DNA of 24,000 nucleotides, taken from the NCBI GenBank assembly GCA_023413135.1, contig JAEZQK010000061.1, positions 25,265 through 49,264 of the forward strand, read 5' to 3'. Source of the DNA: Bacillota bacterium (GTDB lineage: Bacteria; Bacillota; Clostridia; Christensenellales; Aristaeellaceae). The first letter of the stretch is position 1. Every line of letters starts with the position of its first letter. The notes beneath the pieces were generated by a model, which searched no databases, had not been told where the DNA came from, and saw nothing but the letters and a program-made list of their open reading frames with translations. Shown here one piece after another: positions 2,111-12,351 of this stretch. A program made the position numbers and the translations under genes.

Positions 2111-3525
2111 TCCTTCTCAAATGTATACCGCAGTTTGGGATTCCGGGCCGCCGCCACCTCGTCGGGCCTGCCGATGGGGGTGGTCATTGGGGTCAAATGC
2201 AGGCTTTCCGGGTCGTCCTTGGCACGCTGGGCGATTTCCTTCAGCGCGGCAATGCCTTCCTCCAGCGTTTCCCGGCTCTCCGTTTCGGTAGGCTCTATCA
2301 TCAGCGCCTCGTGCACGATGAGGGGGAAGTACATCGTCGGGGGATGCATGCCCTTGTCCAGCAGCGCTTTGGCCACATCCAGCGCGGACACGCCCGTCTC
2401 CTTCTTGAGCCCTTCCAGGGTCAATACAAACTCATGCATGCAGATGTGGTCATAGGCCAGGTCGTAGTTGTCCTTCAGCCGGTTCATCATATAGTTGGCA
2501 TTGAGGACCGCGTTTTCCGACGCCTCGCGAATGCCTTCCCGGCCCAGGGTGAGGATGTAGGTCAGCGCCCGTACCACTACCAGGAAGTTGCCATAGAACG
2601 CCTTTACCTGGCCGATGCTTTGGGGGCCGGGGTTTTCACCCAGCGCGGAAGCCGGCAAAAAGGGCGCCAGGAAGGCTTTGCAGCCCACCGGTCCGGAGCC
2701 GGGCCCGCCTCCGCCGTGGGGCGTGGAGAAGGTTTTGTGCAAATTCAAATGCACCACGTCAAAGCCCATGTCGCCGGGCCGAACCACGCCCATGATGGCA
2801 TTGAGGTTCGCCCCGTCGTAATAGGTAAGCCCGCCCTCCTCATGAACGATGCGGGTGATCTCCAATATGTTCTTGTCAAACAGGCCCAGGGTGTTGGGGT
2901 TGGTGAGCATGAGCCCTGCAGTATCCTCCCCCACTGCGGCCCGCAAAGCATCCAAATCCACGCAGCCATCCGGGCCGGAGGGGATGCTTACCACCGTATA
3001 GCCTGCCATGGCGCCCGTGGCCGGATTGGTGCCGTGGGCGGAATCGGGCACGATGATCTTTACCCGCTTATTGTCGCCCCTGGACTGATGATAGGCCTTG
3101 ATGAGCAGCACGCCCGTAAATTCCCCATGGGCACCGGCGGCGGGCTGAAAAGTCATCCTGTCCATGCCGGTGATCTCGCACAGGTGCTTCTCGGCGGTAG
3201 ACAAAACCTCAAGGCAGCCTTGCACCGCCTCCTTGGGCTGCAGGGGATGGATGTTTGCAAAGCCTGGCAGAGAGGCCATCTCCTCATTGATGCGGGGGTT
3301 GTATTTCATGGTGCAGGAGCCCAGGGGATAAAAGCCGCTGTTCACGCCATGGGCTCGCCGGGCCAGCTTTGTATAATGGCGGCTGATGTCCGTTTCCGCC
3401 ATCTCCGGCAGATGCGGGGCTTTTTCCCTTTGCAGTCCCTCCGGCAACGCAGCCTCCGGCACGTCGCACTTGGGCAGCAGGCTTACATGATGACCGGGGC
3501 GGCTTACTTCAAAGATCAGGTTCAT
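2107..3525 (-). CDS. gcvPB: Glycine dehydrogenase (decarboxylating) subunit 2
   Basis: The ORF 2107..3597 is trimmed to [11 protein letters not shown]... at ATG 3525, with a GGGAGG SD and an ATGA overlap with the gcvPA stop. The translation is strongly P-protein beta-like ([18 protein letters not shown] pyridoxal-Lys region). Confidence 0.95.
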
Positions 3526-6356: not shown

Positions 6357-6560
6357 TAAAACAGAAGCGAACAGGCCGCCTTCGCAGCCTATCCGCCTCT
6401 GTTATCGAACCTGAAAGATTCCTCCCCGCGCAATCTAGCACGAAGGAGTTGCTTCTTCGGTGCATCAATGCTTTCCAGAGTTTCGTCCCGGTTTAGTCTT
6501 TTTGCCTGAGAGTTTGTTGCGTCTTCCCCTTCGGCGCCGCCAAATGGCAGTCTCTCCTAA
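6357..6560 (-). promoter_or_regulatory. Tandem glycine riboswitch with terminator expression platform
   Basis: On the minus strand, aptamer 1 reads GGAGAG..CGCCGAAGGGGAAG..CTCTCAGGCAAAAAGAC. Aptamer 2 reads CTCTGGAAAG..GCACCGAAGAAGCAA..TCTTTCAGGT..ACAGAG. A hairpin follows, ACAGAGGCG(6402-6394)/CGCTTCTGT(6369-6361) plus UUUUA. Its 5' arm overlaps the 3' P1 strand of aptamer 2. The element sits directly upstream of gcvT. Confidence 0.85.
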
Positions 6561-6598
6561 ACCGTTCACCCGAAATATGCAATTTTTATTCCGCTGAA

Positions 6599-9525: not shown

Positions 9526-10101
9526 TTATTTCGCCAGCATGGCGTTCAGAACCTTAAACCCTTCCCCGGTGAGCGCCATGCTGCCAAGCTCCAGCACGGG
9601 GGTGTCCAGCACGAATCCCGGCTTTTGGGCCGCCTCCTTTACCGTTTCCACAAAGTAGGCGTAGAGGTGGGACTGCTCGTACTCCTGATACGCGTACCCG
9701 GTAAGGCGTATATCGTAATCCAGGGTGACCAGCCCAAGATCCTCAAGGGATGCAAACAGTGCGCCGTTTGCTTTCACCGTGTCCATATCGTCCGCAATAT
9801 CTGCAATGTACACGGGTTCCAGCGCCACGGCGTATGCGTCCGCATCCCGGCTTGAGCGCAAGGCAAACCGGGCGATAGGCAGGTATCCCCGCTGATGTAT
9901 GGCCAGCAGCACATCGGCTTGTGCCTCAGTAAGAGCGCCCGCTTCAGGCACAATGTGCGCGTGGTGATGGCCGCAGCCGCAGCCGTCCTCGTGGGTATGT
10001 TCGTGATCGCAGCCGCAGCCGCAACCTTCTTGATGGGTGTTGTGATGGCCGCAGCCGCAGGTTTCGTGATGTTTGTGATGCAAAGGATTTCCGCCTTTCA
10101 T
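9526..10101 (-). CDS. Hypothetical protein with His/Cys-rich (CGCG-repeat) N-terminus; family not recognised
   Basis: Start ATG 10101 overlaps the thpR stop (ATGA). The N-terminus is MKGGNPLHHKHHETCGCGHHNTHQEGCGCGCDHEHTHEDGCGCGHHHAH. A globular domain of about 140 aa follows, which I cannot place. Confidence 0.7.
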   Translation of the reverse strand: MKGGNPLHHKHHETCGCGHHNTHQEGCGCGCDHEHTHEDGCGCGHHHAHIVPEAGALTEAQADVLLAIHQRGYLPIARFALRSSRDADAYAVALEPVYIADIADDMDTVKANGALFASLEDLGLVTLDYDIRLTGYAYQEYEQSHLYAYFVETVKEAAQKPGFVLDTPVLELGSMALTGEGFKVLNAMLAK

Positions 10102-10676
10102 AGTATATTGCAAATGACCGCCCGATGTCCCGCCGCGCCTGTGCTATTTACAAGAGGGCAGCGCATAAGGGGCACATACCGCAATTGTTCCTCCACCCGG
10201 CAGCTTTCAAACAGGGTGATTTCCTCCACCTGCTGGCTTGCGGGAGCCACAGGGATCATGGAGAGTGATACGGGATCCAGCCGTGCCTGCCGTGCCAGGG
10301 TGATGTGGGGATGAAAAGCCCCGTCCTCCAGCCGGAACCCTGCCCGAATCAGCCTTTCCTTCAGATCACTTGCCAATCGTTCCAAAGGCGGCGATTTTGC
10401 AAGGCCGCAAAAAAGCACGGCATCCTGTGGCCGCCGGAAAAAGGAGAGGCCTGTAAGCATTATGGAAAAAGGATCAATCTGCCCCGCTGCGTCTTTCATG
10501 GCTTTTTCTATGAGCAGGACGGCCGCCGTATCCGCCTGGCCAATGAATTGAAGGGTGCAGTGATAGTTGTCCCGCACCGCGTACCGCCCCGGGAACAGCT
10601 CTTGCGCCTGAAGCGCAGCTGCTGACAGCGAGTCTTTCATTCCCCGGTCAAGGCCTATGCCGACAAACACCCGCAT
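10098..10676 (-). CDS. thpR: 2H phosphoesterase, RNA 2',3'-cyclic phosphodiesterase / 2'-5' RNA ligase family
   Basis: The ORF 10098..10742 is trimmed to MRVFVGIG... at ATG 10676, with GGGAGGA SD. It has two HxT motifs (HCTL and HITL) at the expected spacing. Confidence 0.8.
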   Translation of the reverse strand: MRVFVGIGLDRGMKDSLSAAALQAQELFPGRYAVRDNYHCTLQFIGQADTAAVLLIEKAMKDAAGQIDPFSIMLTGLSFFRRPQDAVLFCGLAKSPPLERLASDLKERLIRAGFRLEDGAFHPHITLARQARLDPVSLSMIPVAPASQQVEEITLFESCRVEEQLRYVPLMRCPLVNSTGAAGHRAVICNIL

Positions 10677-10700
10677 GCAGTTTTTCCTCCCATCGTTTCC

Positions 10701-10729
10701 AGCATAGGCATATTTTGCCCGTCTGTCAA
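10701..10729 (-). promoter_or_regulatory. Candidate promoter for thpR
   Basis: Minus strand: TTGACA (10729-10724), 17 nt spacer, TATGCT (10706-10701). Confidence 0.5.
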
Positions 10730-10750
10730 TGCACAGCCGCAAGATTTTTG

Positions 10751-10827: not shown

Positions 10828-11139
10828 ATGGAACGCTTTGCATGGAAAGCTATCGTGCTTGAGGGGATGCTGGAAGAATACAGGCGCCGCCACGATGAGA
10901 TTTGGCCCGAGATGACGGCTCTATTAAACGAGGCAGGCATCCATAATTATACGATCTGGAACGTAGGCAATGAGCTTTTCGGCTATTATGAATGCGAAAG
11001 CATCGAACGTGCCAACCAGGTGCAGGCTCAAAGCGGCGTGGTCAAACGTTGGAACGAATCCATGGCACCGCTGATGCGCATGGTGGCCGACGGAAGAAAA
11101 GGCGAAGGCGGCATGGTGCAGGTGTTTTATCATCCGTAA
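10828..11139 (+). CDS. rhaM: L-rhamnose mutarotase family protein
   Basis: The ORF 10729..11139 is trimmed to ATG 10828, with GGGGAGGA SD. The translation MERFAWKAIVLEGMLEEYRRRHDEIWPEM...HNYTIW...LFGYYE is typical of the RhaM family, at about 104 aa. Confidence 0.85.
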   Translation: MERFAWKAIVLEGMLEEYRRRHDEIWPEMTALLNEAGIHNYTIWNVGNELFGYYECESIERANQVQAQSGVVKRWNESMAPLMRMVADGRKGEGGMVQVFYHP

Positions 11140-11196: not shown

Positions 11197-11787
11197 TCAC
11201 TCTGACGAAGCAGCCTGATGGCGGAACACTGGGGATAAGTAAACATCCGTGCGTAAGCCAGTAGTCTTAGTTATCCTTGTCACTCGCAATAATTTCAAGG
11301 TAGACTGACCGTTTCTATACATAGATTCTTCATGTGGAACGAAAATGCTTGCTGGACATACAATGCCTTCTGTATCCCCATTCAAAAACAGATACGTGTT
11401 ACCATAATGGAACTGCTTTATAATGATATATTTTGCATTAATCCGGGAACCACGCACGATGTTAGGATTAAATTGGATCACAAAGTCACATGACTCTATC
11501 ATTTCTTCAATTCTTAGGATGCACTGTAACCTTTCAAAAATAAGAGTAGCGCGTTTCGATTTTTCTATAAGCGCATCGGTTATACTTCCGGAATCTATAT
11601 GGGTAAATATGTCAGACCTGTTTCTAAAGGTTTGAATAGTGTCCGCATAGTGAAAACCGGCCAAATGATAAAAATCATCAAGACAAAAGCTAATGACAAA
11701 CTGGAACAGCTTTGATTTCCTACCTGCCACTATCTCGTATTCATAATTAGTGAGACGCCTGTAGGCTTTAACACTCTCGTCCAGCAT
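11197..11787 (-). CDS. Hypothetical protein; possible BECR-fold (PBECR4-like) RNase/toxin domain
   Basis: The ORF 11197..11808 begins at a TTG and is trimmed to ATG 11787. AAAGGAG SD lies at 11804-11798. The N-terminal pattern YEYEIVAGRKSKLFQFVISFCLDDFYHLAGFHY, and later FVIQFNP...RINAKYII...CPASIF, resemble my recollection of PBECR-type phage nuclease domains. The functional call is tentative. Confidence 0.7.
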   Translation of the reverse strand: MLDESVKAYRRLTNYEYEIVAGRKSKLFQFVISFCLDDFYHLAGFHYADTIQTFRNRSDIFTHIDSGSITDALIEKSKRATLIFERLQCILRIEEMIESCDFVIQFNPNIVRGSRINAKYIIIKQFHYGNTYLFLNGDTEGIVCPASIFVPHEESMYRNGQSTLKLLRVTRITKTTGLRTDVYLSPVFRHQAASSE

Positions 11788-11810
11788 ATAAACCAGACTC
11801 CTTTGCAAAT

Positions 11811-11840
11811 AAAAAACATGGACGCTTTTATACGTCCATG
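11811..11840 (-). terminator. Rho-independent terminator immediately upstream of the 11787 ORF
   Basis: Minus strand: CATGGACG-tataaaag-CGTCCATG followed by TTTTTTATTT. The U-tract ends 6 nt before the SD of the downstream ORF. Confidence 0.8.
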
Positions 11841-11990
11841 CTGCGCATTTTCTTTCGGCGTTTCCGCCTATTCAAGTTGTGGTTGTTGCGCAACCCCCCG
11901 AGAGCTCCGTGTGCACTGCGACTTGAAACAGAAACACACTTCAGCGCTCAAGATGGACTCAAGATCCATCTGGCATTTATCTTTGCCGCC
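11841..11990 (-). ncRNA. Structured non-coding leader / candidate regulatory or antitoxin RNA
   Basis: The segment lies between a consensus promoter and a terminator and has no SD-preceded ORF. It contains the hairpins AGATGGA-N7-TCCATCT (11951-11971) and GGCG-GAAA-CGCC (11857-11868). It also has the palindromes GTGCAC (11911-11916), GAGCTC (11902-11907) and GTTGCGCAAC (11885-11894). Confidence 0.45.
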
Positions 11991-11996
11991 ACTAGT

Positions 11997-12025
11997 ATTA
12001 TATTTCAAGACACAAAATATGTCAA
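11997..12025 (-). promoter_or_regulatory. Perfect-consensus sigma-A promoter
   Basis: Minus strand: TTGACA (12025-12020), 17 nt spacer, TATAAT (12002-11997). It starts 14 nt after the stop codon of the 12040..12351 ORF. Confidence 0.7.
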
Positions 12026-12039
12026 GAAATATCTGGGAT

Positions 12040-12351
12040 CTATTTGCTTGTTTCCCCAAACAGCTCGTCAACGATCTCCTTTGCGTTAGAAATATGTGAA
12101 AACGGAACATAAAACCGGTACCGTTCAAACGCGGGGCCTGTTCTCATGGCCAATCCCGCCCCCAATACGGGTTTATTCGTAAAAGGGATATTTTTTTGAT
12201 TTAGGACGTCTTCCAGCATTCCGGCCCAAATCGTTTCCTTCTCTGTAAGAAAGCAGAAATCGCCATCCTCCGGTGCCTTCAGATCCCTTCCTCCACATGC
12301 CGGACAAACATCTTCTTGAGACAACAACATGCATTTTTCACAATAATACAT
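12040..12351 (-). CDS. Small zinc-ribbon protein, function unknown
   Basis: The 103-aa ORF begins MYYCEKCMLLSQEDVCPACGG (CxxC..CxxC). AGGAGA SD lies 7 nt upstream of the ATG. The remainder is a small alpha/beta-looking domain. Confidence 0.7.
   Translation of the reverse strand: MYYCEKCMLLSQEDVCPACGGRDLKAPEDGDFCFLTEKETIWAGMLEDVLNQKNIPFTNKPVLGAGLAMRTGPAFERYRFYVPFSHISNAKEIVDELFGETSK

Follow-up and report, generated by a model that had tools for sequence, protein, structure and literature searches.

A drum-family RNA paired with a gene for a predicted PBECR4 ribonuclease in a compact mobile cassette: a candidate RNA antitoxin

We analysed a 24,000-nucleotide (nt) stretch of Clostridia DNA (the window; contig JAEZQK010000061.1, positions 25,265 to 49,264), in which a structured RNA and a gene for a predicted endoribonuclease (endoRNase) of the PBECR4 family lie one behind the other on the minus strand. 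Coordinates are window positions unless a locus of our samples (L followed by a number) is named, and those of the cassette are collected in Table 1. An earlier note on this DNA, made from the letters alone, had described a perfect promoter, a structured leader with little coding potential, an intrinsic terminator and, 6 nt from its T6 run, the Shine-Dalgarno (SD) sequence of a putative nuclease gene, and each of these proved correct. The promoter is the only perfect match (12/12) between positions 11000 and 12700, and it begins 14 nt past the stop (12040) of a 103-amino-acid (aa) Zn-ribbon open reading frame (ORF). One ORF of 5 codons and one of 33 codons are the only ATG ORFs in the leader. 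The 188-nt transcript is predicted to fold with an energy of -68 kcal/mol (z = -3.68), which none of 200 shuffled sequences equalled.

Table 1. Positions of the cassette, its parts and a related leader
Feature	Position	Strand	Remarks
Whole cassette: promoter, 5' hairpin(s), drum, terminator, SD, PBECR4 ORF	11197..12036	-	840 bp, from blastn against L066
Sigma-70-type promoter TTGACA-17-TATAAT	11997..12025	-	12/12 match; predicted start near 11990
Small 5'-terminal hairpin GGCA-N8-UGCC	11972..11987	-	In minimum free energy and centroid folds
P0, conserved 5' stem-loop AGAUGGAU-CUUGA-GUCCAUCU	11951..11971	-	Ends 1 nt ahead of drum core; outside Rfam model
drum RNA core (RF02958)	11840..11949	-	P1, K-turn-like GA/GGA internal loop, P2, P3, P4
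Pseudoknot 5' strand UCAAG, P2 loop	11922..11926	-	Pairs with 11876-11872
Pseudoknot 3' strand CUUGA, just ahead of invariant AAUAG	11872..11876	-	Pairs with 11926-11922
Intrinsic terminator	11807..11842	-	11-bp stem 11842-11815, then UUUUUUAUUU; T6 at 11816-11811
SD sequence AAAGGAG of PBECR4 gene	11798..11804	-	6 nt past T6 run, 10 nt ahead of ATG
PBECR4-domain protein, 196 aa, predicted metal-independent endoRNase	11197..11787	-	Pfam PF18813
Divergent PBECR4 with leader of 2 x 52-nt repeats	L127 1664-1912	-	Likewise L096, L106, L116, L143 and others

The earlier note had taken the leader to be new or unclassified, and had suggested comparing it with the Rfam models. An Rfam scan of the whole window returned a match to the drum motif (RF02958) that covers model positions 1-112 of 112 and scores 84.7 bits (E = 6e-15), the gathering score being 43. 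Judged by its sequence, the leader RNA is thus a member of the published drum family. The features that mark this membership are the score, helices P1-P4, the invariant blocks, the 3' terminator and the adjoining protein family. The invariant single-stranded blocks GGGUU, ACCNCAA, GAAUAG and CGAAAGAAAA were recognised in Rfam and MAFFT alignments, and the invariant positions of drum number about 37 in all. The palindromes that had been picked out by eye now have an explanation: GGCG-GAAA-CGCC is P4, GTGCAC is part of the 3' arm of P2, GAGCTC is the 3' strand of P1, and GTTGCGCAAC covers the invariant GGGUU block together with the 5' strand of P3. Published drum RNAs have a Rho-independent terminator at their 3' side, occur rarely in 5' untranslated regions (UTRs) and have an associated protein gene close by (Weinberg et al., 2017; PMC5737381), and a kink-turn (K-turn) has been newly predicted for drum in a structural paper (PMC11702757).

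All drum helices covary: in an alignment of 37 sequences, 90.9% of the cells are paired, compared with 75.8% after shuffling and 29-39% when the partners are slid. The pseudoknot occurs in CAAG/CUUG, CGG/CCG and CAGG/CCUG variants, so that both partners differ in four of its five pairs; the model from which the alignment was built did not include this helix. The stem-loop P0 (AGATGGA-N7-TCCATCT in the earlier note) has counterparts in 34 of 38 distinct flanks, where a hairpin ends 0-2 nt ahead of P1 and is built from 13 different arm sequences; the region reaches a free energy (dG) of -6 or lower in 25 of the 38 flanks and in 2 of 38 control segments. Because of its position at the very 5' end of the RNA, P0 may be a stabilising stem-loop. 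The small hairpin in front of it is found in the window and in L066 only, and L066 keeps the stem with a different loop. The P0 loop CUUGA (11959-11963) duplicates the 3' strand of the pseudoknot and could take its place as the partner of the P2 loop, and in the subgroup with UCAAG or UCAGG in the P2 loop (the window, L001 and L077) at most 4% of shuffles gave a pairing as good. As a general feature of drum, such a kissing interaction was rejected, because the other subgroups have no such complementarity.

The gene downstream of the RNA encodes a protein that matches PBECR4 over residues 4-154 (E = 4e-21; 76.6 bits, cutoff 27), a family of 531 representative clusters. PBECR domains are predicted BECR-fold endoRNases with an active site made of a His in the N-terminal helix region and a C-terminal Ser or Thr (PMC5512222). 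H41 of the window protein is invariant in an alignment of 60 PBECR4 sequences and S147 is present in at least 90% of them, and these two residues fit the proposed active site. An AlphaFold2 model (pLDDT 94.5) places H41 in a helix (38-43) and S147 in a strand (142-149). The window protein has no ToxN/AbiQ-type Pfam match and no PADLOC match. Its likely start is the ATG at 11787 and not the mechanically listed TTG at 11808, which lies inside the U-tract of the terminator. Over-extension of this kind recurs in the family (a 274-aa call in L087, 2501-3325, runs through the drum), and annotators should be aware that gene callers carry PBECR4 ORFs through the RNA.

We sampled the association of drum and PBECR4 from both sides. 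The protein-first sample consists of 15 genes, 11 of them for PBECR4 proteins that are 24-88% identical to the window protein and were picked by the length of their contigs alone, and four of them plasmid-borne; the sources are gut Clostridia and plasmids of Enterococcus and Streptococcus suis. All 15 are preceded by a drum RNA on the same strand, which ends 34-83 nt ahead of the start codon and scores above the Rfam gathering threshold. The earlier note had proposed looking for a conserved RNA upstream of homologous genes, and in these relatives both the drum and the layout are conserved, including the order of terminator, SD sequence and start codon. Across nearly all loci the order is sigma-70-type promoter, 5' hairpin, drum core, hairpin and U-run terminator, SD sequence, start codon. 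Most drum loci have a promoter equivalent to that of the window, with its -10 element ending 30-47 nt ahead of the core, and a terminator follows the drum in all 21 loci analysed for it (dG -10.6 to -21). L085 (1937-2500) has two complete tandem drum units (49 and 82 bits) ahead of a single PBECR4 gene, each with its own promoter, 5' hairpin and terminator. The L085 element also encodes ParA/ParB, SSB and a giant SNF2 protein.

For the RNA-first sample, pattern scans of genome, viral and metagenome contigs yielded 131 drum loci, confirmed by Rfam or by our own covariance model, and 117 of them had enough flanking DNA to be classified. PBECR4 lies directly downstream on the same strand in 73 of the 117, and in 10 more a divergent PBECR4 gene of the other strand meets the drum tail-to-tail, so that one or the other arrangement is found in 83 loci. 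PBECR4 was not detectable in the other 34 with our own hidden Markov model (HMM) of the family, which missed a divergent subfamily. None of the 117 loci has main-subfamily (A-type) PBECR4 upstream of the drum or beside it on the opposite strand. The single displaced case is L018, where a PBECR4 fragment lies 5 kb downstream on the opposite strand, behind an IS200/TnpB insertion. In L018, L128 and L141 an IS200-type TnpA gene (with TnpB in L018) stands just after the drum terminator, at the site expected for PBECR4. About a dozen of the 73 downstream PBECR4 genes are split into two frames or fragmentary and lie beside a high-scoring drum. A tblastn search of a phage collection gave no match. 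The association is near-obligate and one-directional: dependence runs one way, because the sampled PBECR4 genes are never without drum and drum is often without PBECR4, as expected for an antitoxin.

The PBECR4 genes of the window and of the 73 loci just described have drum in their 5' leader, separated from the coding sequence by a terminator, and the conservation of drum resembles that of riboswitches (PMC5737381). Both features would suit a cis-acting leader, either riboswitch-like or a protein- or tRNA-sensing attenuator of read-through into PBECR4, and an unclassified cis-regulatory leader was one of the options of the earlier note. We regard this as distinctly unlikely. The antiterminator that had been suggested, in which an upstream GTCCAT pairs with ATGGAC of the terminator 5' arm, can be drawn, but it is unexceptional against shuffled controls in the window (z = -0.97). 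Over 21 loci the duplex energy between the terminator 5' arm and the upstream RNA is no better than that of shuffles (mean z = +0.31), and a conserved antiterminator was rejected as a candidate, shuffled arms being equally good; nor does the terminator have any other conserved pairing partner. The terminator arms have no complementarity to the upstream RNA beyond chance, which leaves a riboswitch-type switch unsupported. Terminator sequences are free to vary from locus to locus while the drum core is invariant, and drum is not confined to 5' leaders, as the 34 loci with no PBECR4 detected, the 10 tail-to-tail loci and some drums at the ends of lysis operons show. Weinberg et al. likewise judged a riboswitch improbable (PMC5737381). 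We conclude that the drum leader is not a terminator-type riboswitch, given that it has neither an antiterminator nor a consistent 5'-UTR location.

Other features ascribed to the leader by the earlier note gave a mixed picture. The observation that clean tandem repeats are missing was borne out: Tandem Repeats Finder (TRF) detected no array in 11700-12100, and a direct-repeat search gave short two-copy matches only. The strings of the repeated module said to be shared by the two ends of the leader are real, but the module could not be upheld as more than chance, as neither TRF nor a gapless direct-repeat search returned it, and its 5' copy is altered in L066, which is 85% identical (AAAGATAAATGC to AAGGTTGATTGC), and absent from the other loci. 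Translation of the 33-codon ORF was rejected, its position, frame and length not being conserved: it has 28 codons in L066 and no counterpart in 23 other drum loci, some of which have no ORF at all, and no conserved ORF was found inside the leader RNA across the loci compared. An internal promoter built on the TATAAA of the terminator loop was likewise set aside; the scan did not flag it, and the loop sequence is not conserved.

The locus of the closest relative, L066 (P0002; protein 88% identical), delimits the cassette. A blastn alignment of the two loci begins and ends exactly at the borders given in Table 1, with 85% identity and nothing beyond, and the neighbours differ. Because the homology stops exactly there, we take the mobile unit to be 840 bp, from the promoter to the PBECR4 stop. 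The region common to both loci contains no second protein gene that might encode an immunity or antitoxin protein. The cassette lies in a low-GC island, of which it makes up the AT-rich end; the GC content is 36-46% here, compared with about 52-60% in the flanks. The Zn-ribbon ORF was considered as a part of the module and rejected, since it lies outside the region shared with L066; it occupies 12040-12351 on the minus strand within the same low-GC island, with a CxxC...CxxC pattern and a weak DUF1272 match.

The sampled loci lie on plasmids, in prophages and beside recombinases, with AbiH, SIR2-HerA, TIR and AbiLi-like genes among their neighbours. Defence neighbours of drum or of drum-PBECR4 units include SIR2-HerA (L077), AbiH (L083) and TIR-GGDEF with a PemK-like gene (L066), and an AbiLi-like ATPase gene directly follows the orphan drum of L056. 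The neighbour of the L008 drum is an ORF with an HsdR-like N-terminus, as judged by eye only.

If drum were an unrelated small RNA (sRNA) with a function of its own, and PBECR4 merely exploited leaky read-through as a platform for low-level expression, one would expect the many drum loci that have no PBECR4 and the variety of their neighbours (a DUF6061 protein, type II antitoxins, an AbiLi-like ATPase and an acidic phage protein). This is nevertheless very unlikely in our view. The link between PBECR4 and drum holds in 15 of 15 genes down to 24% protein identity and across Clostridia and Bacilli, and the two move jointly as the 840-bp unit. Because this dependence and co-mobility are hard to explain otherwise, we consider a functional link between drum and PBECR4 probable.

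Orphan drums have varied surroundings. In seven viral contigs (L047, L032, L023, L030, L016, L052 and L054) an orphan drum lies about 30 nt past the last ORF of a lysis-type operon of a prophage and has no obvious promoter, and some prophage drums at the end of a lysis operon have nothing downstream on the same strand. Prophage orphans are convergent with a conserved protein of 206-211 aa that has a long poly-D/E tract and no Pfam domain and is reminiscent of nucleic-acid mimics. We considered this ORF of about 210 aa as a hidden PBECR4 and rejected it, since neither Pfam, PADLOC nor hhalign gave a signal; small ORFs after the drum in L007, L012 and L040 were rejected as PBECR4 relatives by negative hhalign results. 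The orphan drums of L090, L121 and L166 are followed by type II antitoxin genes of the RelB or Phd/YefM family, with no PBECR4 there. A PBECR4 gene led by drum in L068 is followed, right from its stop codon, by a skipping-rope RNA (3069-3140; RF02924, 65 bits), which has a terminator of its own and no clear ORF behind it.

The divergent PBECR4 genes that are tail-to-tail with drum (Pfam E = 6e-30) have a leader of their own. Ahead of them, on their own strand, come a promoter, a tandem pair of 52-nt repeats (91% identity over 43 nt), a strong hairpin terminator and an SD sequence, which is the classical layout of type III toxin-antitoxin (TA) loci. The drum that adjoins such a gene is effectively an orphan. 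The repeat leader has no Rfam match, and a scan of viral contigs for the 52-nt unit gave one uninformative match, beside a tRNA. As all examples come from one lineage, we regard this leader as a pointer and not as proof.

These orphans bear on the possibility that drum is an obligatory RNA subunit (cofactor, scaffold, guide or substrate) of an RNA-protein effector, with PBECR4 needing drum for its activity or targeting. The association in the 15 protein-first loci counts as strictly for such a complex as for an antitoxin, the K-turn (PMC11702757), the pseudoknot and about 37 invariant nucleotides exceed the apparent need of a simple inhibitor, and a complex biochemical role was suspected by Weinberg et al. 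(PMC5737381). If drum were a cofactor, its loss should go hand in hand with that of the enzyme. PBECR4 is undetectable, however, at no fewer than 34 drum loci that are intact and have a promoter, and the PBECR4 gene is broken beside about a dozen drums. The large excess of RNA that a strong terminator would give is needless for a 1:1 cofactor. To our knowledge, none of the BECR RNases characterised so far needs an RNA cofactor, which also counts against an obligatory subunit, and on balance we think this explanation unlikely.

We tentatively favour, at a little short of an even chance, the reading that drum is a trans-acting RNA partner of PBECR4, probably its antitoxin, and that the terminator sets the ratio of RNA to toxin. 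The cassette would then be an autonomous two-part unit, in which transcription from a strong constitutive promoter yields a stable RNA, about 180 nt long and consisting of a protective 5' hairpin, the drum core with its K-turn and pseudoknot, and the intrinsic terminator. A majority of transcripts would end at the terminator and a minority would read through into the PBECR4 gene, which would have no promoter of its own and would be expressed from read-through transcripts only; because most transcripts would stop and few would read through, drum would be in large excess over PBECR4. By analogy with type III TA systems, drum would be an RNA antitoxin or inhibitor that works in trans, binding the PBECR4 protein and neutralising it. 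When the supply of drum fails, through shut-off of transcription, loss of the element or phage infection, free RNase would arrest the cell, and the cassette may thus serve in defence or in plasmid addiction.

Several points weigh against the antitoxin reading. Drum is unlike a typical antitoxin in being single-copy and free of repeats, and its K-turn, pseudoknot and number of invariant positions make it more elaborate than the known type III antitoxins; Weinberg et al. take such features as a sign of "sophisticated biochemical function" (PMC5737381). The family name and two conserved residues are what suggest, from sequence, that PBECR4 is toxic and an RNase, and Foldseek against the PDB gave only weak BECR matches, the best being the CdiA-CT EC3006 tRNase (E = 0.037, probability 0.25). 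The patterns of the RNA-first scans consisted of exact conserved bases, so that decayed drums were never sampled, and most sampled loci come from gut metagenomes. The class of 34 loci may be overestimated because our HMM missed the divergent subfamily, and sequencing errors could account for the split PBECR4 genes of metagenome assemblies. No later functional study of drum or PBECR4 turned up in full-text literature searches.

Taken together, the observations can be joined into a broader proposal, which we offer as a possibility and put somewhat further below an even chance. Drum and PBECR4 would constitute a new RNA-antitoxin (type III-like) TA or abortive-infection family, in which a single-copy K-turn and pseudoknot RNA neutralises a BECR-fold RNase and a terminator sets their stoichiometry. 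Orphan drums, including those at the ends of lysis operons next to the poly-acidic protein, would be anti-addiction or anti-defence decoys like the pseudo-ToxI of phage PhiTE, and PBECR4 toxins would generally be paired with an upstream terminated RNA, whether drum or the 52-nt tandem repeats.

What we describe is a further member of a known RNA family and no new type of element. The value of the finding is in its setting: within a small mobile cassette, an orphan structured RNA is paired strictly, and in one direction, with a predicted RNase toxin. Drum is among a handful of widespread bacterial RNAs that were flagged in 2017 as likely to be "sophisticated" in function (PMC5737381), and the pairing gives drum and PBECR4 a single testable function, that of drum as an RNA antitoxin for a BECR RNase. 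If this is true, RNA antitoxins are not limited to repeat arrays and ToxN-like toxins, the presence of orphan drums in phages is explained, and a function is suggested for the sister motifs (skipping-rope and DUF3800 RNAs).

Two further features of the window lie outside the cassette. A LigT/2H phosphoesterase gene (10098-10742, minus strand) lies about 450 nt past the PBECR4 stop. Metal-independent RNases leave 2',3'-cyclic phosphate ends, on which 2H enzymes act. The proximity of the two genes is probably a coincidence, because the LigT/2H gene is outside the region shared with L066 and in DNA of higher GC content. Two adjacent glycine riboswitch aptamers (RF00504, 63.6 and 36.6 bits) occupy 6397-6569 on the minus strand in the usual tandem arrangement and are unrelated to the cassette.

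Among known systems, terminator riboswitches and T-box leaders share with drum a conserved structured 5' leader and an intrinsic terminator just ahead of an ORF. They differ in that drum has no competition between terminator and antiterminator and also occurs with no downstream gene on its strand. The BECR toxins colicin D/ImmD, CdiA-CT/CdiI and RelE/RelB resemble PBECR4 in the fold, the metal-independent RNase chemistry and the role in conflict systems that are predicted for it (PMC5512222). Unlike these toxins with protein immunity, the PBECR4 cassette has no adjacent gene for an immunity or antitoxin protein, and its only other conserved component is an RNA.

The earlier note had likened the locus to type III TA systems (ToxIN, AbiQ/antiQ, CptIN; we add TenpIN), and the part of this analogy that concerns the layout stands: promoter, non-coding RNA, intrinsic terminator and endoRNase gene follow one another in the same order, there is no protein antitoxin, both kinds of locus are carried on plasmids and prophages, and the RNA should far outnumber the toxin mRNA. 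Membership in one of the known families does not stand. The RNA of the cassette is one pseudoknotted K-turn unit of 110 nt, as against an array of repeats of about 34-36 nt, and the toxin is a predicted BECR-fold PBECR4 protein, as against the ToxN, AbiQ, CptN and TenpN endoRNase families. Thus the analogy is a reasonable working model, because the layout is real, is conserved in 15 of 15 relatives and includes no gene for a protein antitoxin, and the locus falls outside the known type III families, because it has no tandem repeats and its toxin matches PBECR4 only.

The closest comparison is with the published drum motif (RF02958; PMC5737381), with which the window RNA shares all helices and invariant nucleotides, the 3' terminator and an adjoining conserved protein gene. 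The DUF3800-I and skipping-rope RNAs (Weinberg et al., 2017) belong to the same published class as drum: they too are strongly conserved, have a terminator at the 3' end and are compellingly linked to a single protein family encoded nearby; their structures and their partner proteins differ from those of drum. To the published description of drum we add that the partner protein is PBECR4, that a covarying P0 and a promoter precede the core at fixed distances, and that main-subfamily PBECR4 always lies directly downstream of drum on the same strand.

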